From NCBI GenBank assembly GCA_017462545.1, contig JAFTQX010000027.1, positions 30,331-94,330 of the forward strand: a stretch of 64,000 nucleotides of DNA, in the 5' to 3' direction. Source of the stretch: Clostridia bacterium. Its GTDB lineage: Bacteria; Bacillota; Clostridia; Oscillospirales; CAG-272. This document shows, one piece after another, positions 5,905-64,000 of the stretch. The notes beneath the pieces were generated by a model that saw only the letters and a list, made by a program, of their open reading frames with translations, made no database searches and was not told where the DNA came from. Position 1 is the stretch's first letter; each line of letters opens with the position of its first letter. The position numbers were made by a program, and so were the translations under genes.

Positions 5905-6306
5905 ATGGTAAAACTGATTGTCGGCGTAAGAGGAACTGGAAAGACCAAAACACTGATCAGTATGGTAAACGAGGCTGCTGAAAAGAGTAAGGGTTCCGTT
6001 ATCTGCATCGAAAAAGGAAATAAACTGAATTTTGATATCACTCACAAGGCTAGATTGGTCGATGCGGACGCTTATGCGATCAACGATGCACAGGCACTGT
6101 ACGGCTTTGTAGCAGGCATCGTGGCAAGCGATCATGATATCACCGATCTGTTTATTGATTCCACGCTGAAGATCTGCCAGGGTGATGTACCGGCATTTGA
6201 AAAGTTTGTTGAGGAGATTACTGCCTTGACACCTGATCTGAATGTTGTTTTAACAGCATCCATGCCCGTGGAAGATTGCAGTGATGCGTTGAAGAAATAC
6301 ATCTGA
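5905..6306 (+). CDS. small stand-alone P-loop NTPase-like protein, function unknown
   Basis: Walker A GVRGTGKT at residues 7-14 and a candidate Walker B DLFIDS. AAAGGAGAAGG RBS before ATG 5905 and its own terminator. Confidence 0.6.
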   Translation: MVKLIVGVRGTGKTKTLISMVNEAAEKSKGSVICIEKGNKLNFDITHKARLVDADAYAINDAQALYGFVAGIVASDHDITDLFIDSTLKICQGDVPAFEKFVEEITALTPDLNVVLTASMPVEDCSDALKKYI

Positions 6307-6341
6307 TTGTTGCTTTGTCAGTTTCCCTAAAATTGCATATG

Positions 6342-6382
6342 ATATTATCGAGGCGCGTAATGTGTCCTCGATAATATTTTTT
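6342..6382 (+). terminator. intrinsic terminator (12-bp perfect stem) directly abutting the next gene's RBS
   Basis: atattatcgagg (6342-6353) pairs with cctcgataatat (6366-6377), followed by ttttt. Confidence 0.8.
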
Positions 6383-6398
6383 AGGGGGAATAACATCA

Positions 6399-7235
6399 AT
6401 GTCAGAGAACAGATGCTCCTGCAGCTCAGGCGGCGCCTCCTCCGGTGGAAGAGAGACCATCTGCATCGATACCAATCGCGTATTGGATTCTTGCCGCGAC
6501 AGAGACTGCTATGAAAATGCCCGCGTTTATGTAAGCCAGGCCGGGCAGGAATTGCTTGACCATGTCGGCTGCACCGTGCGCGTCGTATGTGCCAAAATTC
6601 TTTGGACATATATCTCGGTTGACCCGATTCAGTTCAATCGCGGCTTTTATCAGATTACGGCACGCTTCTATATTCACGTGAAGCTGGAGGCATGTGTCGG
6701 AATGGGTAGATCCCAGTCGTTTGACGGCATTGCCGTGGTAGAGAAAACCGTCGTTCTGTTTGGCGGAGAAGGGAATGTCAGCATTTTCCGCAGCACCCCT
6801 GAGGCAAACCGCTGTGCGCCCTGGAATGGCTCTCATCGCTCCAACAATCTGCCTACCGCCGTGGTAGAAACGGTAGAGCCTGTTGTACTTGGCTCTACCG
6901 TTGTTGAGCCAAGTTCCTGCAATTGTGCCTGCTATACCTGTTGCTCCGCGAGCGACATCCCGCAGGACATTTTGGATCAGGGATGTCTTGATAACGTGTG
7001 TGACAACGACGATGGGAATAAGCTCTATGTTTCGCTTGGGATTTTCACCGTCTTCCGCATTGAGCGCCCGGCTCAATTCCTGATCTCGGCCTCGGATTAC
7101 TGTGTGCCGGATAAGGAATGTGTTTGCGACGAGCCGAGCAGCCCTTGCAACCTCTTCCGCAACATGGCCTTTCCGACGAGTGAATTCTCGGCCGGCTGCC
7201 GTTCGGCAGATGATACGTGCAACAGAAAGCATTAA
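6399..7235 (+). CDS. cysteine-rich protein of unknown function (possible spore coat/exosporium component)
   Basis: 278 aa with 22 Cys in clusters (RCSC, DSCRDRDC, SSCNCACYTCC, YCVPDKECVCDEPSSPC). No signal peptide. RBS AGGGGGA lies ahead of ATG 6399 and a + strand terminator sits at 7246-7276. Confidence 0.65.
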   Translation: MSENRCSCSSGGASSGGRETICIDTNRVLDSCRDRDCYENARVYVSQAGQELLDHVGCTVRVVCAKILWTYISVDPIQFNRGFYQITARFYIHVKLEACVGMGRSQSFDGIAVVEKTVVLFGGEGNVSIFRSTPEANRCAPWNGSHRSNNLPTAVVETVEPVVLGSTVVEPSSCNCACYTCCSASDIPQDILDQGCLDNVCDNDDGNKLYVSLGIFTVFRIERPAQFLISASDYCVPDKECVCDEPSSPCNLFRNMAFPTSEFSAGCRSADDTCNRKH

Positions 7236-7245
7236 AAACGCAACC

Positions 7246-7276
7246 AAAAGCGACACAGGTTCCTGTGTCGCTTTTG
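7246..7276 (+). terminator. intrinsic terminator after the Cys-rich gene
   Basis: gcgacacag/ctgtgtcgc stem with a gttc loop, then tttt. Confidence 0.8.
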
Positions 7277-7356
7277 GTTATGAAACCCGTATAAATACTG
7301 GATTTTTAGCAGTTTTTAATTGAACTCAATTTGCACAAAAACATAAGATACATAGC

Positions 7357-7388
7357 AAAAGCGAGGTGAAACTCACCTCGCTTTTATT
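7357..7388 (+). terminator. second, orphan terminator-like hairpin
   Basis: gcgaggtg-aaact-cacctcgc followed by ttttattatt. No ORF lies between it and the previous terminator. Confidence 0.55.
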
Positions 7389-7396
7389 ATTGACTA

Positions 7397-7425
7397 TTGA
7401 CAAAAACGCAATCTCGTGATATACT
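7397..7425 (+). promoter_or_regulatory. sigma-A-type promoter of the iclR-GRE-activase unit
   Basis: TTGACA (7397-7402), 17-nt spacer, TATACT (7420-7425). Confidence 0.65.
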
Positions 7426-7461
7426 TATAACATCGTAATATATAAGAAACGAGGAAAGAGT

Positions 7462-8217
7462 ATGTCAAATTTAGCACCTGCAGCCGAGGCATCCACAAAA
7501 ATAATCACCTTTCTTGCGGAATGTGAGCAAGAAACAGGCATTTCCGAAATCAGTCGCGGAACAGGAATTAATAAAAATATGGTGTTTCGCATACTTAACA
7601 CATTGGAAAATGAGGGGTGGGTATATTGTAACGGGCAAAAGTACAGCTTAACTCTTTTGCTTTTTGGGTTGGCATCAAAGCCGGTTGCAAGACTTTCCTT
7701 GAATACGGCGGCTACCCCTGTTCTTCATGATCTGTTAAATGAAACAGGTGAAAGTACATATCTTGGAATATTAAAAGACGATAAGGTAATGTATCTGCAG
7801 CATCTTGATGGTATAAAAGACGTACGGGTCGCCGGTAAGCTTGGCGGTGAATATGATCTATACTGCTCCGCTCCCGGCAAGGTATTGCTTGCATACGGCG
7901 ATGATGAGTTTATTGAAAGTTATGTTTCAAGGCAATTAGATAAACGCACCGAGAACAGCATAACAGAAAAAAGCGCTTTGCTGACAGAATTGGAAACGGT
8001 TCGTCAAAATAGTTACGCAACAGACCGCGAAGAATTTGGTAACGGTATCACCTGTGTTGCAGCGCCTATATATGATTATTCCGGTAAAGTAATTGCTGCT
8101 ATAGGATGCTCGGCATTTACGGTTAATGGAGAGTGTCAGGAAATTATAGATAAACTTTTACCAAAAGTATTATCAGCAGCAAAGAAAATTTCGCTCATTC
8201 TTGGCACAAAAAAATAA
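7462..8217 (+). CDS. IclR family transcriptional regulator
   Basis: N-terminal wHTH (ISEISRGTGINKNMVFRILNTLE..GWV) and a C-terminal IclR effector domain (..YATDREEFGNGITCVAAPI.D..G..IAAIG). Confidence 0.9.
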   Translation: MSNLAPAAEASTKIITFLAECEQETGISEISRGTGINKNMVFRILNTLENEGWVYCNGQKYSLTLLLFGLASKPVARLSLNTAATPVLHDLLNETGESTYLGILKDDKVMYLQHLDGIKDVRVAGKLGGEYDLYCSAPGKVLLAYGDDEFIESYVSRQLDKRTENSITEKSALLTELETVRQNSYATDREEFGNGITCVAAPIYDYSGKVIAAIGCSAFTVNGECQEIIDKLLPKVLSAAKKISLILGTKK

Positions 8218-8231
8218 TCGGAGGTTGGATT

Positions 8232-10346
8232 ATGTATTACAATATAATTGAGCATATAAAAAGCAAGTATTTTGATGACTTGGAAGGATATTCGCCATGT
8301 ATTCGCCAAGCTATGCTATTTAAGTACGTAACGGAAGAAATACCATTAAAGTTAATGGACACGGATCATATAGCGGGGTGGTATGGCTTTGAAAATAAAA
8401 GTGACGTGATGGAATTGGAAAGAAGATCTTTTACCCGCGTTTCTGTGTTAAACGATGAACAAAGGCAAAGGATCAAGCATCTTGATAATGATTTAAAAAC
8501 CAAGATTGCTTTTACATCCGCTCACACTTGTATTGACTATGAAACGATTGTTCAAAATGGATTGGCGTATTATATTACACGCGTAGAGCAAGCTATTTTA
8601 GAAAACCCTGATAATGATTATCTAAAAGCTATGAAAATCAGTCTTGAAGCCGCCTGTGAATATGCCCTTCGTTTTGCCGATGTAGCTAATGAAAAAGCAA
8701 AAAACTCAAAAACGTCAGAACAAAAGAGACGTTTTGAAAGCATATATTCTGCTCTTTGCCGTGTGCCGCGCAGTGGGGCGAATAATTTTCTTGAGGCGGT
8801 GCAATCGGTTTGGATAATGCACTCCCTTATTCCAATGGCAGAAATGAGTTGGGCAAGCATTTCCATAGGACGGATAGATCAATATTTATATCCGTTTTAC
8901 GAAAAACATATAACGGATGGCGGAAATAAAGAAGAGATCAAAGATATTTTAAAAAACCTATTCGTACTTCTGGACTCCTACGGCGACGGCGCTTGTGCCA
9001 TGAATATCGGCGGAATGGACGCTAAGGGCCAAGATATGATTAATGACCTTTCAAAAATATTGATCGAGGTTGAAAAAGAAATGTCACTGCGTGCACCGAT
9101 CTTTGCGGTGCGCGTAACTCCTGATATGCCCGAAGACGTTTTGGATTCACTCATTGATTTTGATTTGTTTAAAATAGGTCAGCCTACGTTTTATTCTGAA
9201 CTTCCGTGTCGCAAAGCTATCATGGGCAGAGGAGTATCGGAAAGCGAGGCGGTTGATTTTGCTGCCAACAGCTGTATGGGGCTTATTCTTGCGGGGCGAG
9301 AATTTGCAGATATGTGGGGGATCATGTTTAATTCCCATTTGCCGTTAGAGCTTGCCGTTAATCACGGAAAACCGCTCAACAGTAATTTGGATGTTGAGTT
9401 TGAGACTCGCCCCACAGAAATAAACGATTTTGAGGAGTTGTTGCAGAAATATAACAGCTATTTTTCAGAATTAATAGCGCTTTGCACTAATTTATATGAG
9501 GTGTTAGCCGTAGAAAAAGAGGCTAATTGCCCCGATCCGTTGCTTTCTGCAATAACTGAAGGGTGTATTGAAAACTGCGGAGACAGAGCAAACAGCGCAA
9601 CGTATAATACCGTAACCGTAGAAACCATGGGGCTTGTAAATACCTGTGATGCATTAGTGGCAATAAAAGAACTCGTGTACGAACAGAAAAAATATACTCT
9701 AAAAAATTTTATCACAGCAGCTAAAATGAATTTTGAGGGCTACGAAAAACTGTTGTCGGATATATCTGAATGTAAAAAATACGGAATGAACGATTTGGGT
9801 GTTAATGCAATTTTTGAGCGGATATGTAAAATGGTATCTGCTGCTTGTAAAAAGGTTTCTCACGATAACCGTTTGTTTATACCGTCCTTACATACTATTG
9901 ATGTCAACGTTGGTTATGGCAGAATTCTTTACGCTACGCTTGACGGCAGAAAAGCAGGCCAACCTGTTAATAAAAATGCAAATCCTTCAAATTTACTGAA
10001 AAAAACAGAGCATACAAGTCACGTTTTATCAGCTACAGCATTTGACCAAACCGAATTTTCAGGCGGTCAGCCTATTGATCTGTATTTTGACAAGAAATGG
10101 TTCGAAACAAAAGAATCAAGGGATAAAATAAAGGCACTTATCCGCACCTATTTTCAGCTTGGCGGATTACAGCTTCAGGTCAACAGCATCGATATCGAGT
10201 TGCTTGAAAAGGCACATAATAACCCTGAGGATTATCCGTTTGTGATAGTTCGAAAAGGAGGCTTTAGTGTACGCTTCAACGAAATGCGCAAAGATACTCG
10301 AGAAGAATTCATCGAGCTTGCAAAAAGGATGGAACAGAATGTGTAG
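8232..10346 (+). CDS. divergent glycyl-radical enzyme (PFL2/glycerol-dehydratase-like fold), substrate unknown
   Basis: FLEAVQSVWIMH, GRIDQYLYPFY and NIGGMDAKGQD..NDLS blocks. Candidate thiyl Cys348 is in AANSCMGL (nt 9273-9275). The glycyl loop is VIVRKGGFSVRF with Gly677 (nt 10260-10262). An activase gene follows and overlaps its 3' end. Confidence 0.9.
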   Translation: MYYNIIEHIKSKYFDDLEGYSPCIRQAMLFKYVTEEIPLKLMDTDHIAGWYGFENKSDVMELERRSFTRVSVLNDEQRQRIKHLDNDLKTKIAFTSAHTCIDYETIVQNGLAYYITRVEQAILENPDNDYLKAMKISLEAACEYALRFADVANEKAKNSKTSEQKRRFESIYSALCRVPRSGANNFLEAVQSVWIMHSLIPMAEMSWASISIGRIDQYLYPFYEKHITDGGNKEEIKDILKNLFVLLDSYGDGACAMNIGGMDAKGQDMINDLSKILIEVEKEMSLRAPIFAVRVTPDMPEDVLDSLIDFDLFKIGQPTFYSELPCRKAIMGRGVSESEAVDFAANSCMGLILAGREFADMWGIMFNSHLPLELAVNHGKPLNSNLDVEFETRPTEINDFEELLQKYNSYFSELIALCTNLYEVLAVEKEANCPDPLLSAITEGCIENCGDRANSATYNTVTVETMGLVNTCDALVAIKELVYEQKKYTLKNFITAAKMNFEGYEKLLSDISECKKYGMNDLGVNAIFERICKMVSAACKKVSHDNRLFIPSLHTIDVNVGYGRILYATLDGRKAGQPVNKNANPSNLLKKTEHTSHVLSATAFDQTEFSGGQPIDLYFDKKWFETKESRDKIKALIRTYFQLGGLQLQVNSIDIELLEKAHNNPEDYPFVIVRKGGFSVRFNEMRKDTREEFIELAKRMEQNV

Positions 10347-11241
10347 CGGTGTTGTTTTCAACATTCAAAAATTTTGCATAAATGACGGTCCCGGTATCAG
10401 AACAACGGTATTTCTTAAAGGCTGTCCGTTGCGATGCAAGTGGTGCCATAATCCCGAATCGCATTTTTACAAACGGGAGTTGCTTTATGATTCGGAAAAA
10501 TGTGTAGGTTGTGGACGCTGCGGTGATGTCTGCTCTCAAAACGCACATTCTTTTGAAGGCGGGCATAGTATAGACCGCAACCACTGTGTTTCCTGCGGTC
10601 GGTGTGTCAAAGAATGTGGCTTTGATGCGCTGGAATTTTCCGGTAAAGAGGTGTGCGTTCAAGAGGTTTTTAATGAAATTTTAAAGGATAAAGTCTTTTA
10701 TGATAATTCAGGTGGCGGATTGACACTGTCGGGTGGCGAACCGCTGATGCAGTTTGATTTTGCTTATGAGCTTTTAAGGCAAGCAAAAAAGAATGGGATA
10801 CATACCTGTATTGAAACCTGTGGATTTGCCAAAACAGAGGATATTTTGAAAATTGCGGAGTATACCGATATATTTCTTTATGATTGGAAGCTGACCGATG
10901 AAAAATTACATAAAGAATATACCGGTGTGAGTAATAGGTTGATACTTCAGAATTTAAAGTCGATCGATGCTGTTGGCTCCAAAATCATTTTAAGATGTCC
11001 TATCATTCCAAGTGTAAATGATACCGAGGAGCATCTTCTTGGTATTATTAGCGTTGCGAATTCTCTTAAAAATATTTTGGCTGTTGAAATTGAGCCGTAT
11101 CATTCGTTGGGCAACAGCAAATACAAAAAACTCGGAAAAACAGAAAAATGCCAAGCTTTCTGCCAACCCACAGAGCAGCAGGTTGAAGCTTGGATCACGA
11201 AAATTCAAAAGCACAGTAAAACCGTTGTAAAAAAAGCGTAG
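10339..11241 (+). CDS. glycyl-radical enzyme activating protein (radical SAM)
   Basis: N-terminus GVVFNIQKFCINDGPGIRTTVFLKGCPLRCKWCHNPES (CX3CX2C), plus two ferredoxin-like motifs CVGCGRCGDVC and CVSCGRCVKEC. ATG 10339 overlaps the GRE stop (ATGTGTAG); the listed 10267 start is an upstream extension. Confidence 0.9.
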   Translation: MCSGVVFNIQKFCINDGPGIRTTVFLKGCPLRCKWCHNPESHFYKRELLYDSEKCVGCGRCGDVCSQNAHSFEGGHSIDRNHCVSCGRCVKECGFDALEFSGKEVCVQEVFNEILKDKVFYDNSGGGLTLSGGEPLMQFDFAYELLRQAKKNGIHTCIETCGFAKTEDILKIAEYTDIFLYDWKLTDEKLHKEYTGVSNRLILQNLKSIDAVGSKIILRCPIIPSVNDTEEHLLGIISVANSLKNILAVEIEPYHSLGNSKYKKLGKTEKCQAFCQPTEQQVEAWITKIQKHSKTVVKKA

Positions 11242-11265
11242 CAAATCTATTTTTTAAATCAGTAT

Positions 11266-11321
11266 AAATCTCCTTGCTTTGCAGATACTAACAGTACAAA
11301 TCTGTAAAAACAAGGAGATTT
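11266..11321 (+). terminator. long hairpin ending the GRE unit; its 3' arm contains the spoVT Shine-Dalgarno
   Basis: aaatctccttg (11266-11276) pairs perfectly with caaggagattt (11311-11321). An inner extension tttgcagat/atctgtaaa has one G:U. The hairpin is followed by tttat. Confidence 0.55.
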
Positions 11322-11330
11322 TTATATATT

Positions 11331-11885
11331 ATGAAAGCCACAGGAATTGTACGTCGCATCGACGACCTCGGACGTGTCGTCATTCCCAAAGAAATAAGAA
11401 GAACAATGCGCATTCGCGAGGGTGACCCTCTTGAAATCTATACCGATCGGGAGGGGGAAGTAATCTTCAAAAAATATTCACCGATCGGTGAAATGGCATC
11501 CTTTGCGGCACAGTATGCAGAGACGCTGCAAAAGACCTGTTCCATGGCTGTTGTCATCTGTGACCGTGATGCCGTTATCGCGTCTGCCGGTGTGCCCAAA
11601 CGGGAATATGCAGACAAAAAGGTTTCATCCGCTTTTGAAGAGATCATTGAAGGCAGATCGATTTACACGCACAAGGAGAACGGAGAGCGCATTTCAGTCA
11701 TCGAAGATGGAGGCTCCTATTATGTTAGTTGTGCCATGCCGATCATTACAGAGGGAGACATTGTGGGCTGCGTAGCCTCTGTTTTACCTCACGATGGTGA
11801 GGGGGTTGATCGTATTCCCACCGATTTAGAAACCAAGCTGATTCAAACAGCAGCTGGCTTTCTTGGTAAGCAGCTTGAAAATTGA
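11331..11885 (+). CDS. spoVT: stage V sporulation protein T (AbrB-family regulator)
   Basis: MKATGIVRRIDDLGRVVIPKEIRRTMRIREGDPLEIY SpoVT/AbrB swapped-hairpin N-terminus plus a GAF-like C-terminal domain; 184 aa. Confidence 0.9.
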   Translation: MKATGIVRRIDDLGRVVIPKEIRRTMRIREGDPLEIYTDREGEVIFKKYSPIGEMASFAAQYAETLQKTCSMAVVICDRDAVIASAGVPKREYADKKVSSAFEEIIEGRSIYTHKENGERISVIEDGGSYYVSCAMPIITEGDIVGCVASVLPHDGEGVDRIPTDLETKLIQTAAGFLGKQLEN

Positions 11886-11890
11886 TAGAA

Positions 11891-11918
11891 AGAGAACCGA
11901 CAATGTCGGTTCTTTTTT
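11891..11918 (+). terminator. intrinsic terminator after spoVT
   Basis: gaaccga-caatg-tcggttc followed by tttttt. Confidence 0.8.
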
Positions 11919-11948
11919 ACTGGAAAGTGCGGAATTCATAAAAACAAC

Positions 11949-11977
11949 TTGCAATTCCTATAAAAGCCGTGTATAAT
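11949..11977 (+). promoter_or_regulatory. sigma-A-type promoter of the M16 peptidase pair
   Basis: TTGCAA, 17-nt spacer, TATAAT. The listed GTG 11969 start lies inside this promoter. Confidence 0.55.
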
Positions 11978-12004
11978 GGAATAAAAACAAAAAAGGAAAC
12001 AAGA

Positions 12005-13315
12005 ATGAGCCTTTATCGCTGTTCGTTGAAGCCGGGGATCTTTTTAAACCACTTAAAAAATGACCGGTTTAAGACGGGGTATTTTTCGCTGAACTTTATT
12101 CTTCCGCTCTCCATAGAAAACGTAGCGTACTATGCGCTGCTTCCTCGTGTTTTGCGTAGTGGATGCGAATCCTTGCCGAATCGACGTGCTATCGTCAAAC
12201 GGTTAGAGGAGCTATACGGGGCTGACATTTACGTCCGGCATTACGGACGGGGTGACAAGCAGATTATTTCCTTTGCTGCCGATTTTATTGATCGTGCATA
12301 TTTGCCGCAGGACGAACGAGCCGATGTGTTTTCAGAAACACTTGCCGTTTTACGAGATTTAATTTTTTCACCCATTCAGCAAAACGGTCTGTTTTTACAG
12401 GAATACGTCGATATGGAACGGCGCAATTGCGCAGATGCCGTTCGTGCAATGATAAACAACAAGCAACAGTACGCCATTCACCGCTGCACGATGCTGATGT
12501 GTGAGGGAGAGACGAGCGGCATTCCGATTTTGGGAACAGTTGAAGACTTTGAAAACCTCCTTCCTCAAAAGCTAATAGAATGCTACCGCCACATGCTTGC
12601 CCATGCTCAGGTAGAGATCTTTTATGTTGGTTCGTCGTCACCGGCTGCTTTGGAAACTGTTTCTGCCGAGTTTTTTTGCTCGAAAATGGACGGGCGTGAA
12701 CTTCCGCAAACACAATCAGCACGCATTCTTCATGCAAACACAGCAAAGCAATATGAAGAAACCGCCAACGCCGTACAGGGAAAACTAGTACTTGGTTTTC
12801 GTACGGGTGTCTTTTTGGGTGATACAACGCAATTTGCTTATTCGCTGTTCAACGAAATCTATGGTGGCTCGCCATCCTCCAAGTTGTTTTTAAATGTACG
12901 CGAGAAGAAGAGCCTTTGCTATTCTTGCTATGCACATGCCGATCTCTTGAATGGAATCATGTATGTGGCGGCCGGCATTGATCGCGAGCAGAAGGATGTT
13001 GCTATCAAAGAAATCTTGTTACAGCTAGATAAAACCCGGCAGAACGAGATTTCCCAAGAAGAACTCTATTATGCCAAGCAATCGCTTGCCAATGGCTATC
13101 GCAGCTTATATGATAGCCCTGAAGCATTGGAGGTCTGGTACCTGCGGCGCATCCTTGCAGGGAGTGTCCTTACACCGGAAGAGGTGATTGAGCGCATCAT
13201 GCAGGTAACTGCTCAAGATGTGGCTGCCATTGCCCAAAGGGTTTCGCTGGACACGATTTACTTTCTGCGCGGTGACGGCACATGCACAGATGAGGAAGGG
13301 GAAGAAGATGACTGA
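12005..13315 (+). CDS. M16 (pitrilysin/insulinase) family protein, non-catalytic subunit type
   Basis: M16 fold-length protein without an HxxEH zinc motif (the equivalent region reads YALLPRVLRSG). Its 8-nt overlap with the next M16 gene suggests coupling. Confidence 0.8.
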   Translation: MSLYRCSLKPGIFLNHLKNDRFKTGYFSLNFILPLSIENVAYYALLPRVLRSGCESLPNRRAIVKRLEELYGADIYVRHYGRGDKQIISFAADFIDRAYLPQDERADVFSETLAVLRDLIFSPIQQNGLFLQEYVDMERRNCADAVRAMINNKQQYAIHRCTMLMCEGETSGIPILGTVEDFENLLPQKLIECYRHMLAHAQVEIFYVGSSSPAALETVSAEFFCSKMDGRELPQTQSARILHANTAKQYEETANAVQGKLVLGFRTGVFLGDTTQFAYSLFNEIYGGSPSSKLFLNVREKKSLCYSCYAHADLLNGIMYVAAGIDREQKDVAIKEILLQLDKTRQNEISQEELYYAKQSLANGYRSLYDSPEALEVWYLRRILAGSVLTPEEVIERIMQVTAQDVAAIAQRVSLDTIYFLRGDGTCTDEEGEEDD

Positions 13316-14630: not shown

Positions 14631-15479
14631 ATGGCTACCATGATTGATGGAAAAGCAGTATCGGCTGCATTGCGCTCCGAGTTGAAAGAAAAAATAGCCG
14701 CGTTTGCCGCAGCGAGCGGCGCGGCGCCCGGCCTTGCGGTGGTGCTTGTGGGGGATGATCCGGCATCTTCGGTATATGTCCGCAACAAGCATCGCGCATG
14801 TGAGGAGGTTGGAATATATTCCGAGGTTTATCAGCTTCCTGCAGAAACAAGCGAAGAGGAGCTGCTCGCCTTGATCGACCGCTTGAATGCGGCAGCAAAC
14901 ATTCACGGAATTTTGGTGCAATTGCCTCTGCCGAAACATATCTCGGAAGAACGTATTGTTCTTGCGATCCATCCCGATAAGGATGTTGATGCGTTTCACC
15001 CTTCCAATGTTGGCAAAATCATGCTCGGAAATTATCGATTTTTACCTTGTACACCCGCCGGGGTCATGGCGCTGCTACAATATTACAACATCGAGGTAGC
15101 AGGGAAGGAGTGCGTGGTTGTCGGACGGAGCAACATTGTTGGCAAACCACAAGCTCTGCTTTTGTTGGAGAAAAACGGAACGGTTACCGTATGCCATTCA
15201 CGCACAAAAAACCTGGCAGATGTCACTCGACGTGCTGACATTTTGGTAGCAGCAGTTGGCAAAGCAAAGTTTATTACGGCAGACATGGTAAAAGAAGGCG
15301 CAGTTGTCATTGATGTGGGCATCAATCGCATGGAAAACGGAAAGCTTTGCGGGGATGTAGATTTTGAGGCTGTTTCGCAAAAAGCCTCCGCCATTACGCC
15401 GGTGCCGGGAGGTGTCGGCCCTATGACGATTACCATGCTGTTGCAAAATGCTTTGCGCGCTGCAGAGATGCAACAATAA
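14631..15479 (+). CDS. folD: bifunctional methylenetetrahydrofolate dehydrogenase/methenyl-THF cyclohydrolase
   Basis: MIDGKAVS......E....., PGLAVVLVGDDPAS.VYVRNK, GILVQLPLP, CTP.G, VVGRSNIVGKP, PVPGGVGPMT. Confidence 0.95.
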   Translation: MATMIDGKAVSAALRSELKEKIAAFAAASGAAPGLAVVLVGDDPASSVYVRNKHRACEEVGIYSEVYQLPAETSEEELLALIDRLNAAANIHGILVQLPLPKHISEERIVLAIHPDKDVDAFHPSNVGKIMLGNYRFLPCTPAGVMALLQYYNIEVAGKECVVVGRSNIVGKPQALLLLEKNGTVTVCHSRTKNLADVTRRADILVAAVGKAKFITADMVKEGAVVIDVGINRMENGKLCGDVDFEAVSQKASAITPVPGGVGPMTITMLLQNALRAAEMQQ

Positions 15480-16673: not shown

Positions 16674-17591
16674 ATGACACTTTTGGTTCTTGCAGCCGGC
16701 ATGGGTTCTCGTTACGGTGGATTGAAGCAGCTTGACCCTATGACGCCGCATGGTGAGTTTATTATTGACTTTTCTGTATATGACGCCATTCGCGCCGGTT
16801 ACAACAAGGTTGTATTCATTATTAAAGAAGAGAATTACGAGCTTTTTCGTTCTACCATCGGTAAGCGTATCGAAAAAGTGATTGATGTAGAATATGCGTT
16901 CCAGGGGATGGAAATTCCCGCAGGTACGGTTGTAATACCGCCTGAACGTGTAAAACCGCTTGGTACTGCACATGCGCTCCTGTGCGCAAGAAAGAACGTA
17001 ACTGAAAAGTTTTCGGTTATCAATGCTGATGACTATTACGGCCCCGAGGCGTATCGCCTGGCAGCTGAATACATGAATCAGTCTCCGGACTACGGTCATT
17101 TTTGCATGGTCGGTTATGTGCTGAAAAACACGCTCACCGAGCATGGTACAGTTTCTCGTGGTATTTGCGTTGCCAATGAAAATGGCATGCTCGACAGCAT
17201 CACCGAGCGCACAAAGATCCGCCATGCAGCCGATCATAACAACGCGGAGTATACAGAAAACGACCAATGGTATCCGCTTGCCTATGATAGCATCGCATCT
17301 ATGAATTTCTTCGGGTTTGATCCGTCGATCTTTGATTTTGCAGAAGAAGGATTCCGCAAATTCTTGACCGATCCGAACACCGATTTGTTAAAGGGCGAGT
17401 ATTTCCTGCCTTCTGTCGCTTCTGCCATGAACGCAGCAGGGAAGTGCGACCTGAAGGTTTTAAAAACGACCGATAAATGGCATGGGGTTACTTATCCTAA
17501 GGATAAGGCCGAGGTTGTTGATTGCATCCGCGAGATGATCGCAAAGGGCGTTTACCCCGACGGGCTTTGGAAATATTTTATTCATATATAA
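16674..17591 (+). CDS. NTP-transferase domain protein (putative sugar-1-phosphate nucleotidylyltransferase)
   Basis: N-terminal LVLAAGMGSRYGGLKQLD nucleotide-binding loop; 305 aa; immediately upstream of galE. Confidence 0.75.
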   Translation: MTLLVLAAGMGSRYGGLKQLDPMTPHGEFIIDFSVYDAIRAGYNKVVFIIKEENYELFRSTIGKRIEKVIDVEYAFQGMEIPAGTVVIPPERVKPLGTAHALLCARKNVTEKFSVINADDYYGPEAYRLAAEYMNQSPDYGHFCMVGYVLKNTLTEHGTVSRGICVANENGMLDSITERTKIRHAADHNNAEYTENDQWYPLAYDSIASMNFFGFDPSIFDFAEEGFRKFLTDPNTDLLKGEYFLPSVASAMNAAGKCDLKVLKTTDKWHGVTYPKDKAEVVDCIREMIAKGVYPDGLWKYFIHI

Positions 17592-17603: not shown

Positions 17604-18620
17604 ATGGCAATTCTCGTAACAGGCGGTACCGGCTATATCGGTTCTCACACAGTGGTAGAGCTGCTGAAGGCAGGCGACGATGTTGTTATCGTTGACAATC
17701 TTTGTAACAGCAAGCTGTGCGTACTTGACCGCATTGAAAACATCACCGGCAAGCGCCCCACATTCTATCAGGTAGACCTTTTGGATGCTGACGCGTTGGA
17801 TGAGGTGTTTGCAAAGCACCCCGAGATCAACGCCGTTATTCACTTCGCAGGGCTGAAGGCTGTTGGCGAATCTTGTCAGTTGCCGCTGCTTTACTATCAC
17901 AACAACCTGACCGGCACCTTTATTCTTCTCGAAAAAATGCAGAAATACAACGTCAATCGCATTGTATTCAGCTCTTCTGCTACGGTATACGGCATGCCCA
18001 AGAGCGTTCCGATCCGCGAGGACTTCCCGCTGTCCACTACCAATCCGTATGGTGAGACCAAGCTGATGATCGAGCGTATTATGAAAGATGCTTGCACGGC
18101 AAATAAAAATCTGAGCGTATCCATTCTTCGTTACTTCAACCCCATCGGCGCACATGAGAGTGGTACCATCGGTGAAGATCCCAAGGGCATTCCGAACAAT
18201 CTGTTACCTTATGTTGCCAAGGTTGCCGCAGGCAAGCTGCCGCACCTGAACGTGTTTGGTAACGACTATCCTACGCCTGACGGCACTGGTGTACGCGACT
18301 ATATTCACGTTGTAGACTTGGCATTGGCGCATCTCAAGGCACTTACTCGCACAGAGAAGGTGCAGGGAATTGAGTATTTTAACATCGGCACCGGTGTTGG
18401 CTATTCCGTTCTGCAGATCGTAGCCGCATTTGAAAAGGCTTATGGTTCTGAGGTGAAGTATGTCATCGCAGATCGCCGCCCCGGTGATATTGCTGAATGC
18501 TACGCAGATCCGACCAAGGCAGCTGAGATTCTCGGTTGGCGCGCTGAGCGTGATCTGGCAAAAATGTGCGAGGATTCTGCAAGATGGCAGAAGATGAACC
18601 CCGACGGATACGGCGAATAA
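17604..18620 (+). CDS. galE: UDP-glucose 4-epimerase
   Basis: ILVTGGTGYIGSH, SSSATVYG and YGETK (YxxxK) motifs; 338 aa. Confidence 0.95.
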   Translation: MAILVTGGTGYIGSHTVVELLKAGDDVVIVDNLCNSKLCVLDRIENITGKRPTFYQVDLLDADALDEVFAKHPEINAVIHFAGLKAVGESCQLPLLYYHNNLTGTFILLEKMQKYNVNRIVFSSSATVYGMPKSVPIREDFPLSTTNPYGETKLMIERIMKDACTANKNLSVSILRYFNPIGAHESGTIGEDPKGIPNNLLPYVAKVAAGKLPHLNVFGNDYPTPDGTGVRDYIHVVDLALAHLKALTRTEKVQGIEYFNIGTGVGYSVLQIVAAFEKAYGSEVKYVIADRRPGDIAECYADPTKAAEILGWRAERDLAKMCEDSARWQKMNPDGYGE

Positions 18621-18663
18621 TTCCTCATATAAAATTCGGCAGATCTCATTTTTCTATAAAAAA

Positions 18664-18697
18664 TAAAAAAAGGCCTCCTGTTTGGGAGGCCTTTTTA
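18664..18697. terminator. bidirectional terminator between galE and the TrmH-family gene
   Basis: A-run, aggcctcc / ggaggcct stem, T-run. Confidence 0.8.
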
Positions 18698-18709
18698 GTG
18701 TTTAGCATA

Positions 18710-19486
18710 TTACTCGCAATTCTGTCTGAATATTTCATAAGCGAGCATTGTTGTAGCAGATGCGGCAGAAAGGGATGCCCTGAATTCACGACCGTACCCG
18801 ATTTTGACAAGCAAGTCGGCTTTGTCTAATAGAGCGCGAGAAATACCGCGACGTTCGCCACCAACAATTAACAGGATTGGTTTTTTCAAGGGTGTTTTAT
18901 GTAGTAAATGATCTGTTCGCTCGTCTGCACACACAACTGTGTAACCACGTTCGTGGAAGAAATCAGCCGCCTCAAGCGGTTCGGATACATAGACGGGGAG
19001 CATCTCGGAAGCACCGGCTGAGGAGCGCGCTACAACACCGGCCGCGCTTAACCAATTGCGCTCGGGTAGAATAATGCCATCTACACCGCAAGCATACAGC
19101 GAACGAATGGCATAACCAAAATTATAAGGATCCTCAATACCTTGTATCATCGCGTAAAATCCTGTTTTTTTGACATTGCCGGCCTCGGACAGCATCGGTA
19201 ATGTACGAGATCCGCACTCGGCGAGCAGGCCGCCATGCGAATTGCCAATGGCAAGCGTGTTGATCTCTTCTTCGCCGGTCGGCAGCAAAGGAAAACCGTA
19301 TTCTTTACTCATTGCGCGCAAATAGGAAAGCTCCTTATACAGCTTATCCTGCTTTTTTTCATCGTACAGCAGTCGCTCAACAGGTCGATCATTCGTTCCG
19401 GCCTTTCGCCCCGCAAAAAGAGCGCGCAGGGAAGTCATACCTTCCAAAATAGTAGAATTTTGAAATTTTATATCTTCTTTTTGCAT
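18710..19486 (-). CDS. TrmH/SpoU family RNA 2'-O-methyltransferase (RlmB-like)
   Basis: N-terminal substrate-binding region plus SpoU methylase motifs (GI.DPYNFG...RS, LIVGGERRGIS, IGYGREFRASLSAASA). Confidence 0.85.
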   Translation of the reverse strand: MQKEDIKFQNSTILEGMTSLRALFAGRKAGTNDRPVERLLYDEKKQDKLYKELSYLRAMSKEYGFPLLPTGEEEINTLAIGNSHGGLLAECGSRTLPMLSEAGNVKKTGFYAMIQGIEDPYNFGYAIRSLYACGVDGIILPERNWLSAAGVVARSSAGASEMLPVYVSEPLEAADFFHERGYTVVCADERTDHLLHKTPLKKPILLIVGGERRGISRALLDKADLLVKIGYGREFRASLSAASATTMLAYEIFRQNCE

Positions 19487-19565
19487 GTAAAAAACAAGCC
19501 TTTCATATATTGAAGTATCAAATATAGGGAGAGGCTGCTACCATTGGTGGCAACCGCAGAGAGTC

Positions 19566-19871
19566 ATGCTTTATCAAAACCAGGGTGAAAGATGTGAAAT
19601 GTTAGCGCAATATTTGATTGAACATCACGCAACAGTGCGACAAGCTGCACGGGTATTCGCAGTTAGTAAAAGTACCGTACATAAGGATGTGGCCGTGCGC
19701 TTAAAGCAGGTCAATCCAAGCTTATTTGAATGTGCCAAAAAAATTCTTGAAGAAAACAAATCAGAACGACATTTGCGAGGCGGCGAAGCAACCAAGCAAA
19801 AATATCTATACCTACAAAACACACTTAAGAAAGCCGCGAACGAAGAAACTCAACCGTTTGTGACGAAGTAA
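19566..19871 (+). CDS. spoIIID: sporulation transcriptional regulator SpoIIID
   Basis: ERCEMLAQYLIEHHATVRQAARVFAVSKSTVHKDV......NP.L.......L..NK.ERHLRGGEATK.KY matches my recollection of B. subtilis SpoIIID almost motif for motif. Confidence 0.9.
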   Translation: MLYQNQGERCEMLAQYLIEHHATVRQAARVFAVSKSTVHKDVAVRLKQVNPSLFECAKKILEENKSERHLRGGEATKQKYLYLQNTLKKAANEETQPFVTK

Positions 19872-20535
19872 TACGATAGGCAGTTTCGCCACGCATGTTT
19901 GTTATTTTATTAACAAGCGATGTGGTAATAGGCGGACGATCAATCGCATTATGCGCATTGGAGCCGAGAAGAACGTTTTTTTCGGCAAGAGACAGCTTGA
20001 TGACAGTTTGCGCAATTTCAGAATAAATCAACGCATTGGCACCAACCTGGAAAATGGTATTAGGTAAGCCGCAAAGACGTGCAAAGTCGGCCGCGCTATA
20101 CATAAAATAGTACCGTTCCAAATGACAAATAACCAGTCTGAGTTGTCTCTTATGCAGAAGTGCTGATATTTCGCGCATCATCCAATCTTCAAATTTGCCA
20201 AGTGGTAACGCAATCGGTAAATAGGGTGTGCCGGGTATGCACAATTTTTGTAACTGCGCAACACTACCGAGCCCGGGCAGCAGAAGCACTTCAGCAGAAA
20301 GAAACAACCGAAAACGATTAAACGTATCACCAAGAGCCAAGCGCAATGCTTGATGACTTTCGCGCCGTCGGCGCAAAAAGATATCGACAGTTTCACGATC
20401 CGCGTAAAAATGTGGGGTAGCGATAGCCAACCGACAATCTTCATGCTTTAAATAGCGAAACATCTGTACGGCGGCATCTAAGCAAGGACCGTTATCCATG
20501 TTCGGCAAAAGATGGATATGCGCATCGTAATACAT
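19825..20535 (-). CDS. PHP-domain protein, CpsB/YwqE-like tyrosine phosphatase family
   Basis: MYYDAHIHLLPNMDNGP N-terminus, later ATPH and GSNAHN motifs. GGAG lies 6 nt before ATG 20535. The 3' end overlaps spoIIID convergently by 47 nt. Confidence 0.7.
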   Translation of the reverse strand: MYYDAHIHLLPNMDNGPCLDAAVQMFRYLKHEDCRLAIATPHFYADRETVDIFLRRRRESHQALRLALGDTFNRFRLFLSAEVLLLPGLGSVAQLQKLCIPGTPYLPIALPLGKFEDWMMREISALLHKRQLRLVICHLERYYFMYSAADFARLCGLPNTIFQVGANALIYSEIAQTVIKLSLAEKNVLLGSNAHNAIDRPPITTSLVNKITNMRGETAYRITSSQTVEFLRSRLS

Positions 20536-20737
20536 AGAAAACTCCATTCATCATCCCATGGGTATATCATAACAGATTTTACCTTAAATTACAAGATGGA
20601 ATAAGAAAGTTTCTTGTTATGCCATGATTGCAAACCATAAAATAAGCTAACAAAAAACATGCTCGCTGCATCCAAACGCAAAACACCCCCTCAAAAATGC
20701 CGTACCGAGCACCATTTATGGCAAAAGCCCTCCCCTT

Positions 20738-20767
20738 GATTATACAAAATTTACATTTTGTATAATC
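20738..20767. repeat. perfect 13-bp inverted repeat with 4-nt spacer (operator-like palindrome)
   Basis: gattatacaaaat-ttac-attttgtataatc. No flanking T-run on either strand. Confidence 0.8.
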
Positions 20768-20831
20768 AGCACGCTCGCTATACATTGTAGCACATCTATG
20801 CTACTCTGTCAAGGGGTGTTTTTCTTTTTGC

Positions 20832-21041
20832 CTATTTGAGTATATCGCGTAATGCCTGTAACGCTGTTTGCTCGTCTACGTGGAGCACGTGAGCGATCAA
20901 CCAAAATTCTGCCGCGGAGATCTCGCGGACGCCCATTTCGATGGTTGTATACCGTCGATTGATATCATAACCGACCGACATTTAGCCAGTTATGCTTTTT
21001 GTGAGATGCATTTTTTGTAAAGCAACAATTTCCTCCGGCAT
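20832..21041 (-). pseudogene. XRE-family HTH gene interrupted by an in-frame TAA
   Basis: My hand translation gives MPEEIVALQKMHLTKSITG*MSVGYDINRRYTTIEMGVREISAAEFWLIAHVLHVDEQTALQALRDILK*. It reads as one HTH_3-type domain split by a stop (complement of 20982-20984). No Shine-Dalgarno is visible upstream. Confidence 0.4.
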
Positions 21042-21209
21042 AGATAGAAAAACGCTATTTTATTATCGTTTCTAGGTTTTAAACCAATTTTTATATATAT
21101 CCAAAAACTAAATTTGCGTTTTTTCAAAAAAACTCTTCCATTTTTGCTAGATGTATGTTATAATATATAAAAATACACAGGCCATGCCTGCCTACGGAGG
21201 ATATTGATT

Positions 21210-21632
21210 ATGAAATTGCGCGTTCTTACTGCTACCAACAAAGGTAAACTGATTTCTATTGCTGAAATGCTTGCCAAGAAAGGTGAAGCTGAATACGCTG
21301 TAGATGTAATTCCCCCCGCATATTCTTGTGACCGCGAAAGACTGGTTATTCTTGTTGTATCTGCAGCGGCAAAAATGCCCAATGCATTCTCTATCTTCTG
21401 TAAGGATCTTGGCCGTGGCAGAACGCAGCATGTCGCTCTGTTGGTAGACGGTACTCCCGAAAATGCCGCCCCGATCATCGAGTGGATCAAGGGCGCAGGC
21501 TCGCACGTTTGTGATGAGGTGCTTTATATGAAGGGCGGTCTTCCCTTCAAGTTCTTGCGCGGCGTTTCTGAAGAAGAGACCGCTACCGCTGCTGCTTGGC
21601 TTGATAGAATCATGGCCGACATTCAGAAATAA
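21210..21632 (+). CDS. hypothetical protein (141 aa)
   Basis: GGAGGA lies 8 nt before ATG 21210, a terminator follows, and I recognise no family motif. Confidence 0.55.
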   Translation: MKLRVLTATNKGKLISIAEMLAKKGEAEYAVDVIPPAYSCDRERLVILVVSAAAKMPNAFSIFCKDLGRGRTQHVALLVDGTPENAAPIIEWIKGAGSHVCDEVLYMKGGLPFKFLRGVSEEETATAAAWLDRIMADIQK

Positions 21633-21645
21633 TTTTCGTTCAATC

Positions 21646-21677
21646 CCCACCGCAAAAACGGTGGGAATTGTTTTTTT
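21646..21677 (+). terminator. intrinsic terminator
   Basis: cccaccg-caaaaa-cggtggg followed by aattgttttttt. Confidence 0.75.
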
Positions 21678-21712
21678 CTTTTAAAAAACTTAAAAAAATT
21701 CTTTATAACCTA

Positions 21713-21741
21713 TTGCATTTTTGGAAAAAATATGTTATACT
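21713..21741 (+). promoter_or_regulatory. sigma-A promoter of tRNA-Ser
   Basis: TTGCAT, 17-nt spacer, TGtTATACT. The tRNA starts about 12 nt downstream. Confidence 0.65.
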
Positions 21742-21752
21742 ATTGGAGTCGT

Positions 21753-21844
21753 GGAGAGATGGCTGAGCTGGTCTAAGGCGCACGACTGGAAATCGTGTAA
21801 CCGTTGATAGCGGTTCAAGGGTTCGAATCCCTTTCTCTCCGCCA
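21753..21844 (+). tRNA. tRNA-Ser (anticodon GGA), CCA encoded
   Basis: Acceptor ggagaga/tctctcc, anticodon loop ct-gga-aa, long variable arm (gtaaccgttgatagcggttc), T-loop gttcgaatc; 92 nt. Confidence 0.9.
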
Positions 21845-21846
21845 GA

Positions 21847-21878
21847 AAACCTCCATCGCAAACGCGATGGAGGTTTTT
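21847..21878 (+). terminator. terminator after tRNA-Ser
   Basis: aaacctccatcgc-aaac-gcgatggaggttt followed by tt. Confidence 0.85.
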
Positions 21879-21909
21879 CTCTTCCATATCTTGTAAAAAG
21901 AGGTATATT

Positions 21910-22845
21910 ATGATTGCCGAAGCATTGATCTATCAAGTAGGCTTGCTGTTCTTGATGCTGATACCCGGTATAATACTGGCCAAATGCGGCCTTTCTACTG
22001 AAGGGCTTGGAAAAGGGCTTGCTAACCTTGTTCTGTACATCGCGCAGCCGGCCTTAATCGTGGTCGCCTATGTGCGTGCGTTCGACCAAGAGATCCTATG
22101 GAACGCCATATGGGTATTTATTTTTTCCATTCTCTCTCACTTCCTTTTTGCCGGTGTAGCCTTCCTTTGCTTCAAAAATGCTGAGGAAGGAAAACAAAAA
22201 ATCCTACGCTTTGCGACTATTTTTTCCAACGCCGCTTATATGGGCATCCCGTTGATCGTGGCAGTATTGGATGACGAGGCTGCCATCTATGCCTCGATTT
22301 ACAACATCACATTTAATCTGTTCCTTTGGTCGCTTGGCGTCATCATTTGTACGGGAGATAAAAAGCAAGCTTCCGTCAAGAAGGTTTTGCTGCATCCTGT
22401 AACCATTTCTGCCGCAATTGGTCTTGCCATCTTCCTGCTGCCGATTGATACCTATATTCCCAAGATTTTGGTTGATGGCATGGACATGCTGAAGAATTTG
22501 GTCGCGCCACTATCCATGATCATCATTGGCTTGCGACTGGCAGACCTGAAATTTCGTGGAATCTTTCGTGATCGATATCTCTATGAGTTTTTATTCATTC
22601 GCATGCTTTTGCTGCCCGCGGTAATCTTTGTCATAATGAAAGGACTATCCTTTATTTTGCCCGGCATTAACGAAACGGTCATGACAGTAATTTTGGTAAC
22701 TGCCGCAACGCCTGCGGCAACCGCAACCTCGATGTTTGCTGAAAAATATGATGGGGACGCCACTTACGCCGGCACACTTGTTTCGCTCTCTACCCTGCTC
22801 TCCGTGTTGACAATGCCGCTGATTTCCCTACTTCTCAATGTTTAA
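21910..22845 (+). CDS. AEC (auxin efflux carrier) family transporter
   Basis: 311 aa with about 10 hydrophobic helices in a two-half architecture typical of the AEC/malate permease family. Confidence 0.8.
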   Translation: MIAEALIYQVGLLFLMLIPGIILAKCGLSTEGLGKGLANLVLYIAQPALIVVAYVRAFDQEILWNAIWVFIFSILSHFLFAGVAFLCFKNAEEGKQKILRFATIFSNAAYMGIPLIVAVLDDEAAIYASIYNITFNLFLWSLGVIICTGDKKQASVKKVLLHPVTISAAIGLAIFLLPIDTYIPKILVDGMDMLKNLVAPLSMIIIGLRLADLKFRGIFRDRYLYEFLFIRMLLLPAVIFVIMKGLSFILPGINETVMTVILVTAATPAATATSMFAEKYDGDATYAGTLVSLSTLLSVLTMPLISLLLNV

Positions 22846-30344: not shown

Positions 30345-30347
30345 AAA

Positions 30348-53015: not shown

Positions 53016-53024
53016 GGAGCACAC

Positions 53025-53894: not shown

Positions 53895-53897
53895 GCT

Positions 53898-61789: not shown

Positions 61790-61960
61790 TTGCTTTATCT
61801 CCTCTGCAGTCTTTCTGCGATTATACAATTCTATTATCATATTTTAGCACAACCGACAGAAAAATTCAATACGGTTTTTCTTTTTTCACCGTTCTTTTGT
61901 GCATTCTATTGATTTTTTTGTTTTTTCATGCTATACTGAAGAAAAAAGGAGGTAGACGAT

Positions 61961-62170: not shown

Positions 62171-62174
62171 ATAC

Positions 62175-62206
62175 AAAAAGCAGACGGTAAAAACCGTCTG
62201 CTTTTT
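62175..62206. terminator. bidirectional terminator
   Basis: aaaaa-gcagacggt-aaaa-accgtctgc-ttttt. Confidence 0.85.
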
Positions 62207-62218
62207 GTTCGCATTGGC

Positions 62219-63997: not shown

Positions 63998-64000
63998 TTT

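Follow-up and report, generated by a model that had tools for sequence, protein, structure and literature searches.

Evidence for recent horizontal arrival of an iclR, glycyl radical enzyme and activase module upstream of spoVT in a Clostridia bacterium, and a non-canonical catalytic loop in the enzyme's clade

Where does a compact, AT-rich three-gene unit beside the sporulation regulator gene spoVT come from, and what might the glycyl radical enzyme (GRE) that it encodes do? The question is raised by a 64,000-nucleotide (nt) stretch of a Clostridia bacterium genome (GCA_017462545.1, contig JAFTQX010000027.1, positions 30,331 to 94,330; hereafter the window, to which all positions refer unless another locus is named by its L number), in which genes for an IclR-family regulator, a GRE and a GRE-activating radical S-adenosylmethionine (SAM) enzyme follow one another. 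GREs are oxygen-sensitive and carry out difficult anaerobic chemistry in gut microbes, e.g. the formation of trimethylamine, p-cresol and H2S. Whole GRE clades are still without an experimental function (2026 review, PMC13450708). We consider it probable, at roughly 80% (a joint figure for module, transfer, GRE function and IclR regulation together), that 7344-11261 is a self-contained, insulated module that arrived recently by horizontal transfer from a Clostridia lineage of lower GC content into a hypervariable gap between a gene for a Cys-rich protein (CysRich) and spoVT. The module comprises a terminator hairpin, a strong promoter with an operator-like leader, and the IclR, GRE and activase genes. 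The transfer itself is ordinary, and the interest lies in a GRE clade with a non-canonical catalytic loop.

The three genes are co-directional (+ strand) and form one tight unit behind a near-consensus promoter. Specifically, iclR (7462-8217) encodes a 251-amino-acid (aa) member of the IclR family with an N-terminal IclR-type helix-turn-helix (PF09339, HTH_IclR, 2e-10) and a C-terminal effector-binding domain (PF01614, IclR_C, 4e-44); the protein scores under every NCBIfam equivalog cut-off, with PcaR/PcaU and KdgR as top matches. After a gap of exactly 14 nt follows the GRE gene (8232-10346, 704 aa; PF02901, PFL-like, 3e-94, and PF01228, Gly_radical, 6e-16), which overlaps the activase gene by exactly 8 nt (ATG at 10339, TAG at 10344-10346). 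The start of the activase gene (10339-11241, 300 aa) is best placed at this ATG. The encoded protein reaches 340.6 bits against TIGR02494 (cut-off 174), matches Radical_SAM, Fer4_12 and Fer4 in Pfam, and has the motif C29-x3-C33-x2-C36 together with two ferredoxin-like Cys clusters; judged from these sequence features it is a bona fide activase, and the adjoining, overlapping gene with its CX3CX2C motif supplies the cognate radical SAM activase expected of a GRE. Inspection of open reading frames (ORFs) and domain searches revealed no transporter, shell or pathway gene and no small-subunit ORF within the islet. The initial annotation had described the same tight unit, with the same gap and overlap, and had also noted the missing transporter, shell and pathway genes.

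The composition of the unit differs from that of its surroundings: GC is 39.2% compared to 47.9% in the rest of the window, the unit is the minimum among all 4-kb windows (~3.2 standard deviations under their mean GC), and GC at third codon positions is 0.337, 0.374 and 0.382 in its genes vs 0.515 +/- 0.056 in 55 other ORFs. The nine hand counts of single 60-nt lines from which a compositional drop had been proposed were all reproduced, and the drop is real at the level of window, gene and third codon position. It is not a property of the gene family, because homologous modules match the GC of their hosts in L143 (0.359 vs 0.361) and in L147-L151; apart from slight deficits in L140 and L145, the module is poorer in GC than its host only in L142 and in the window. 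This speaks against an alternative in which the cassette has long stood beside spoVT by vertical inheritance in this clade, was lost or replaced in the sampled relatives, and owes its low GC to gene-specific constraints.

For the comparison of gene order we used the Cys-rich left neighbour as query over species-representative genomes; the 80 loci found all belong to uncultured Clostridia of the gut or rumen, and neither iclR, the GRE gene nor the activase gene is present within 10 kb in any of them. Six relatives (L002, L003, L004, L006, L008 and L015) keep the order dacB-pgi-ATPase-CysRich-gap-spoVT, continuing with M16-M16-folD beyond spoVT where their contigs reach that far. Collinear blastn alignments with the first five of these, at about 70-84% nucleotide identity in the flanks, end at 7187-7236 and restart at 11250-11262 (11330 in L006). 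Together with the junction alignments and the GC contrast (39% vs 48%), they delimit an inserted islet at 7237-11261 (no strand assigned) without counterpart in the syntenic relatives.

In the relatives the gap is 1.3-6.1 kb long and its cargo varies. L003 and L004 have a URO-D-like gene there; L002 has, judged from the translations, AraC, EamA, MBL and deacetylase ORFs and one of 639 aa; L006 has ORFs of 412 and 217 aa; L008 has ORFs of 844, 383, 292 and 359 aa; and L015 has a mini-spoVT gene plus a gene for a 253-aa protein. The site between CysRich and spoVT is therefore a variable hotspot, with the GRE module as the window's cargo, and this is why the two genes are never directly adjacent in the relatives. 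The adjacency once suggested as a check on acquisition was thus not recovered, other cargo lying between the two genes, while the predicted absence of the cassette held for the six relatives and the 80 loci. Similarly, the unit had been placed between sporulation genes, which is correct for spoVT on the right; the Cys-rich protein on the left (6399-7235, 278 aa) matches no Pfam or NCBIfam family. Conserved versions of the latter protein (42-86% identity) are encoded in 80 species-level genomes of uncultured Clostridia; most of the loci with upstream sequence have the gene behind dacB-pgi and a gene for a 144-aa P-loop protein.

A copy of the cassette with ~98.5% nucleotide identity is present in L140, a JGI contig from a different organism whose other flanking genes are unrelated to those of the window. 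Between 7392 and 11293 the identity to L140 is 96-100% in 50-nt steps, except for two steps with 88% and one with 94%; to the left the similarity decays to noise by 7340, and to the right it is 60-84% inside spoVT. At the protein level the identities are 98.8% (IclR), 98.2% (GRE), 97.0% (activase) and 68% (SpoVT). The synonymous divergence (dS) of the cassette is 0.02-0.07, with a ratio of nonsynonymous to synonymous divergence (dN/dS) of 0.18-0.22, while dS is saturated in spoVT. This contrast implies that the module was exchanged recently between distant lineages and that its three genes are under purifying selection. A tract extending 270 nt into spoVT, as suggested by blastn (96% over 4257 nt), was ruled out by the 50-nt identity scan: blastn had extended through the conserved gene, and the high-identity tract truly ends at ~11293. 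From 11277 onwards the window is closer to its own relative L003 than to L140, which puts the right joint at 11261-11276, where the spoVT promoter has its conserved -35 region; no homology is seen at the left joint. Insertion would most likely have occurred by recombination, with the right crossover within 11261-11276 and a non-homologous joint on the left.

These data weigh on the vertical alternative introduced above. In its favour, iclR and the GRE gene lie directly upstream of spoVT in both the window and L140, and 4-7 kb upstream of it in L142 and L143, where later insertions separate them. Against it stand the cassette dS of 0.02-0.07 beside a saturated dS of spoVT and a 68% identical SpoVT, the absence of the cassette from the six syntenic relatives and all 80 loci, and the donor-type repeat at its left edge (see below). 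We thus regard long-standing vertical inheritance as very improbable. Even less credible, indeed exceedingly so, is an assembly artefact, i.e. a metagenomic chimera in which 4 kb of foreign sequence became attached to the contig at the conserved spoVT promoter. It could draw on the fact that the source is evidently metagenomic, that the identical GRE was found only in metagenome assemblies, that all related loci are from metagenome-assembled genomes and that the right junction lies within sequence conserved between species. Two junctions restoring perfect synteny on both sides would nevertheless be needed, and at the left joint the window and L140 have no common sequence by which an assembler could have been misled. 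Moreover, the independent Logan assembly L001 has the identical left junction (CysRich-iclR-GRE-activase), which argues against a chimera.

If the module was transferred, as we conclude, it could have travelled as cargo of a site-specific mobile element (an integron-like cassette, integrative element or transposon) that targets the 5' region of spoVT. The site is indeed a multi-cargo hotspot with a structured hairpin, and extra copies of the spoVT promoter and its first ~100 nt flank the cargo in L015, L142 and L143. Yet no integrase, transposase or recombinase was found in the window locus or in the related gaps; the islet itself has neither integrase nor transposase, and the nearest tRNA gene is at 21753. 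A search at the left junction for direct or inverted repeats or a spoVT-promoter remnant gave only three 8-mers shared by the cassette ends, which are not significant (P 0.07 by shuffling, 0.2 against AT-rich control windows), and the junction positions differ between loci. The extra copies were considered as scars of serial site-specific insertion, an idea rejected by alignment: they are paralogous mini-genes, because they have a tail of their own in common after approximately codon 33 and encode 49-62-aa AbrB-domain proteins. A dedicated mobile element is consequently quite improbable, and the locus lacks the features of a classical mobile genomic island, integrative element or transposon. 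Its atypical composition, its absence from syntenic relatives and the near-identical copy in a distant genome instead make it a genomic islet. It shares with known chromosomal integration hotspots and islets a small accessory block between conserved genes, differing cargo at one site among closely related genomes, deviant composition and no mobility genes; it differs from them in that a sporulation regulator gene serves, with its promoter and 5' end, as one anchor and in that the same module recurs beside spoVT in several lineages. We found nothing relevant in the literature on a spoVT hotspot.

The mini-SpoVT genes (49-62 aa) are located upstream of full spoVT in several relatives (L015 11010-11159; L142 15933-16121; L143 about 15145-15300 and 16709-16891), and the window has none. 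Each encodes the AbrB/MazE-type N-terminal domain only, followed by the common non-spoVT tail, and has its own copy of the spoVT promoter and hairpin. In addition, an 85-nt remnant of the spoVT promoter and first codons is present in L142 (13039-13123), directly after its broken activase gene; the remnant matches the region upstream of the true spoVT in L143 at 97.6% identity, against only 72% between the cassettes of these two loci, and from its sequence it is best described as a separate recombination trace.

Three hairpins had been noted around the unit in the initial annotation (7246-7276, 7357-7388 and 11266-11321), two as tandem terminators on the left and one as its right-hand border. 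All three fold well, and only the assignment of the right one had to be changed (see below). The first is a perfect 18-bp hairpin (7241-7280, + strand), the terminator of the Cys-rich gene on the host side of the left junction, with a folding energy of -28.7 kcal/mol over 7238-7290 (z -7.6 vs shuffled sequence); the relatives have another hairpin at the same place. The second, terminator-like hairpin (7352-7390, + strand; -20.4 kcal/mol over 7350-7398, z -7.2 vs shuffled sequence) forms the 5' edge of the transferred module and is also present upstream of iclR in L140 and L143. It occurs once in the 64-kb window and once in L142, and in L143, a relative with 36% GC, five copies are spread over 22 kb (326-354, 6179-6207, 9125-9153, 12118-12146 and 14672-14700; the window copy is at 7357-7385), some with compensatory variants. 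This 29-nt palindrome, AAAAGCGAGGTG-N5-CACCTCGCTTTT, is intergenic in L143, its stem variants are compensatory, and it behaves like a REP-type repeated terminator. The left-edge hairpin thus resembles a terminator-type palindrome that is repeated in the donor lineage and was carried in with the module, its lone copy in the window marking the cassette edge. A scan of 6900-12000 against Rfam gave no credible match.

How is the module likely to be expressed? A sigma-70-type promoter of the iclR-GRE-activase operon is present at 7397-7425 (+ strand; TTGACA-17-(TG)TATACT, 11/12 matches), which, with its TG-extended -10 box, is the best sigma-70-like site within 6300-12000; the initial annotation had described it as near-consensus. 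Downstream of the -10 box and before the ribosome-binding site, two leader boxes were revealed by cross-locus footprinting, TATAACA (7426-7432) and ATATATAAG (7438-7446), which together (7426-7446, + strand) form a putative IclR operator. Ten iclR-GRE loci, including loci where IclR is only 37-74% identical, have a common upstream order: TTGACA, a 17-nt spacer, an extended -10, TATAACA, 5-6 nt, ATAAATATATAACA and a ribosome-binding site. The -35 and extended -10 are kept in nine of ten divergent loci, and the leader consensus is TATAACA-N5-6-ATAAATATATAACA, the second box being shortened in the window; in L093 the boxes form an inverted repeat, TTGTTAT-N14-ATAACAA. The position and conservation of the boxes fit a putative IclR operator at the transcription start, from which follows a repression that would be relieved by an effector. 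IclR would thus bind just downstream of the -10 and repress the operon until a small-molecule effector appears. That the module is substrate-inducible, as had been suggested, we infer from the IclR gene and the conserved operator-like motif.

The right-hand hairpin is not a terminator of the cassette but part of a conserved upstream element of spoVT (11262-11330, + strand) that lies outside the cassette and consists of a long hairpin and a sigma-G/F-like promoter; the element is also present in relatives without the cassette. spoVT itself (11331-11885, + strand), the host gene in the right flank, encodes SpoVT_C and AbrB/MazE N-terminal domains, and its product is 92-93% identical to those of L002 and L003 and 68% to that of L140. 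The hairpin (-23.9 kcal/mol over 11262-11325, z -5.2 vs shuffled sequence) folds in eight of 11 related sequences, the outer pairing being kept while the inner stems differ between lineages; in the relatives it is found at e.g. L003 12050-12127, L015 12069-12145, L143 18691-18764 and L011 12079-12155 (- strand). RNAalifold gave no consensus for 15 spoVT leaders because indels shift the arms; single-sequence folding did reveal the hairpin. Its left arm, CTCCTTG, pairs with the spoVT ribosome-binding site CAAGGAG, and overlapping the hairpin is a GTATA-17-GATACTA sequence that fits what we take to be the consensus of forespore sigma-G/F promoters. A transcript from this promoter would be without the left arm, whereas one that reads through from upstream would include it. 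The hairpin may thereby silence read-through transcripts and would shield spoVT against transcription entering from upstream; foreign operons could then be tolerated at the site.

What reaction might the GRE catalyse? An AlphaFold2 model (predicted local distance difference test, pLDDT, 92.9; predicted template modelling score, pTM, 0.91) has the PFL-like barrel domain and the C-terminal glycyl radical domain of the PFL-like division of the GRE superfamily. In Foldseek, query-normalised template modelling scores (TM-scores) were 0.85-0.88 to glycerol dehydratase (1r8w), PFL2, CutC, propanediol dehydratase, HypD and PflD, at sequence identities of at most 25%. The predicted thiyl residue Cys348 (nt 9273-9275) aligns with C433 of 1r8w, and Gly677 (nt 10260-10262), the predicted radical residue, with the following F678 aligns with the glycine of the RVxG[FWY] motif. 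Across 38 homologues, which range down to 42% identity, S347-C348-M349 and G676-G677 do not vary. By model and alignments the protein has the canonical GRE fold with the catalytic Cys and Gly, and the activase would use SAM and its [4Fe-4S] cluster to put the radical on Gly677.

The loop carrying the catalytic Cys reads S-C-M-G (C348-M349-G350), with S-C-M invariant in the clade. All GRE eliminases and isomerases keep a CXE motif, the glutamate of which binds a substrate hydroxyl, and Cys-Cys on this loop occurs only in PFL and TdcE (PMC13450708). Neither CXE nor Cys-Cys is present in the Cys loop of the GRE, which sets it apart from the eliminases and isomerases and from the formate lyases, and a local search of the PDB with the Cys-loop peptide matched no GRE. 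A pairwise HMMER alignment to 1r8w at ~23% identity, i.e. not a comparison of coordinates, gives the replacements E435 to G350, D447 to W362, H281 to A208, Y339 to A256 and Y640 to H554. A 1,2-elimination or isomerisation assisted by glutamate, as in the characterised relatives, is therefore improbable for this GRE, and the replacements by small residues suggest a roomier pocket. The glycyl radical region deviates as well: compared to the full fingerprint RVxG[FWY]x6-8[FL]x4Qx2[IV]x2R (PMC13450708), the sequence R-K-G-G-F-SVRFNEM-RKDT-R-EE-F has V replaced by K, [FL] by M, Q by R and [IV] by F, with the glycine kept; the consensus of the clade is VRxGGYSVRFxELxxxxRxEFIE, with L at the [FL] position.

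Could the GRE still be a divergent member of a characterised class, i.e. a glycerol or propanediol dehydratase, an anhydro-sugar-phosphate isomerase (PflD, YbiW) or a pyruvate formate-lyase? Its best sequence and fold matches are PFL2, glycerol dehydratase, CutC, propanediol dehydratase and PflD, and several homologues lie among sugar kinase, aldolase and isomerase genes. Against this, S-C-M-G takes the place of CXE or Cys-Cys throughout the clade, residues important in the dehydratases are replaced, the Cys loop has no local match among solved GREs, and the NCBIfam scores fall far short: 312 bits vs a cut-off of 678 for the PFL2-3 subfamily, and 58-254 vs 994-1150 for full-length named enzymes. 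Specifically, a pyruvate formate-lyase is disfavoured by the single Cys and by 58.7 bits vs 994 for TIGR01255. The GRE decarboxylases (HPAD, IAD, PAD, AAD) are disfavoured by 161.7 vs 1100 (IAD model) and 141.6 vs 1150 (HPAD model), and for HPAD also by the lack of the Glu expected two residues after the Cys and of a small-subunit ORF in the islet. X-succinate synthases are disfavoured since the PDB search ranked BSS and MASS near the bottom of its matches (E 1e-28 to 1e-33, 19% identity) and the islet has no small-subunit ORFs that could supply their accessory beta and gamma subunits. Aminoacyl radical enzymes (AAREs), finally, have Ala, Ser or Thr in place of Gly as radical-storage residue (PMC13450708), and Gly677 is invariant. 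Membership of a characterised class is thus unlikely.

The closest known systems show how far the likeness extends. The B12-independent glycerol dehydratase of Clostridium butyricum (1r8w) and PFL2 of Archaeoglobus fulgidus (2f3o), the best sequence matches (E 1e-60 to 1e-70), have the same 10-stranded barrel (TM-score 0.85), aligned catalytic Cys and radical Gly, and in common an activase with two auxiliary clusters; H164 and S282 of 1r8w are kept as H98 and S209. At 23-25% identity, however, the window GRE is ~80 aa shorter, mainly in the N-terminal helical region, has S-C-M-G where these enzymes have G-C-V-E, and deviates in the glycyl fingerprint. With CutC, HypD, propanediol dehydratase, IslA, HpsG, PflD, YbiW and HplG the clade shares the pairing of GRE and activase and the occurrence in gut anaerobes, and some clade homologues are found in sugar-catabolic loci, as are PflD and YbiW; unlike these enzymes it is without CXE, and it stays far under their NCBIfam equivalog cut-offs. 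Escherichia coli YjjI/YjjW (DUF3029, a putative GRE) likewise combines a short GRE-like protein with its own activase, YjjI having ~516 aa. The window GRE gives no PF11230 match at E <= 0.01, and its activase reaches 151 bits vs the cut-off of 250 of the YjjW model, which separates the two systems.

Well over 100 sequence clusters of ~700 aa make up the clade; they come from Clostridia of gut and rumen and are listed in databases without name or as "hypothetical", "DUF3029 family protein" or "formate C-acetyltransferase"; some members carry a precomputed PF11230 match and the NCBI name "DUF3029 family protein". A literature search gave nothing relevant on a GRE with IclR or with DUF3029. The same-cassette search proposed earlier returned, besides the L140 copy, more distant versions in unrelated contexts: the iclR-GRE-activase module is also present in L142 (activase broken) and L150 (61% identity, no spoVT nearby), and L143 has iclR-GRE without activase. 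In L145 (62% identity) GRE and activase genes are part of a sugar operon that also encodes an ABC transporter, DeoC aldolase, Zn-dehydrogenase (Zn-ADH), FGGY kinase and GH36; in L148 an FGGY gene adjoins that of the GRE, and L147, L149 and L150 have AP_endonuc_2 in the neighbourhood. Over 30 homologue loci the recurrent neighbours are the activase (11), a second short GRE paralogue (11) and IclR (8), and clustering of the neighbours in these loci revealed no other conserved pathway partner.

Extra short GRE paralogues (650-750 aa) lie beside a clade member in L140 (3507-5645), L085, L093, L100, L103, L124, L128 and L151, with three or four in a row in L100 and L124. They share one activase, and their Cys loops are diverse (GCTE, GCYE, GCWE, ACCT).

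The contexts of the homologues point weakly to carbohydrate metabolism. The earlier statement that context gives no hint of the substrate is hence right for the islet itself and slightly too strong overall, because these homologue contexts do offer such a hint. A carbohydrate-derived metabolite is the most likely substrate, a proposal in which our confidence is somewhat short of even; its product would enter central metabolism or be excreted without dedicated partner genes. More doubtful, and put forward tentatively, is the idea that the ~700-aa S-C-M-G clade may represent a functionally new GRE class, which would perform thiyl chemistry without the Cys-loop glutamate in an enlarged Ala/Gly/Trp/His pocket, act on a metabolite sensed by IclR and spread among gut Clostridia as an insulated, partner-free module.

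Several points weigh against our interpretation of the locus as a whole. The nearest syntenic references are only ~76% identical in the flanks and include no islet-free conspecific genome. No mobility gene, direct repeat or target duplication accounts for the insertion, and the occurrence of the module beside or near spoVT in four lineages (window, L140, L142 and L143) could, taken alone, suggest an old association. Finally, the residue mapping depends on a distant pairwise alignment, and the homologue contexts are heterogeneous beyond the three recurrent neighbours. Nevertheless, horizontal acquisition, which the initial annotation had proposed from composition, is strongly supported by the combination of composition, synteny break and near-identical copy elsewhere.

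Elsewhere in the window, at approximately 18000-22000, the GC skew changes sign, the predominant gene orientation switches from + to - (convergent) and the cumulative skew peaks. This could mark a replication terminus or just the change in orientation; a search around the skew switch for the Bacillus dif sequence was negative. The zone of second-lowest GC (0.41-0.42) is at 20.5-22 kb and includes the tRNA-Ser gene at 21753-21844, while GC is 0.51-0.55 at 28500-31500, 52500-54500 and 59500-64000 compared to the window mean of 0.47.

The locus is a compact and evidently functional example of an experimentally uncharacterised GRE clade. With its clean boundaries and a 98.5%-identical distant copy it is also a well-resolved case of recent gene flow, in which the transfer entered a hotspot anchored on a conserved sporulation regulator gene. 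Since its genes are under purifying selection and it brings its own activase and regulator together with a conserved operator-like motif, it offers a practical starting point for finding the substrate, in a search in which IclR can be used as a ligand sensor and the GRE co-expressed with its activase.

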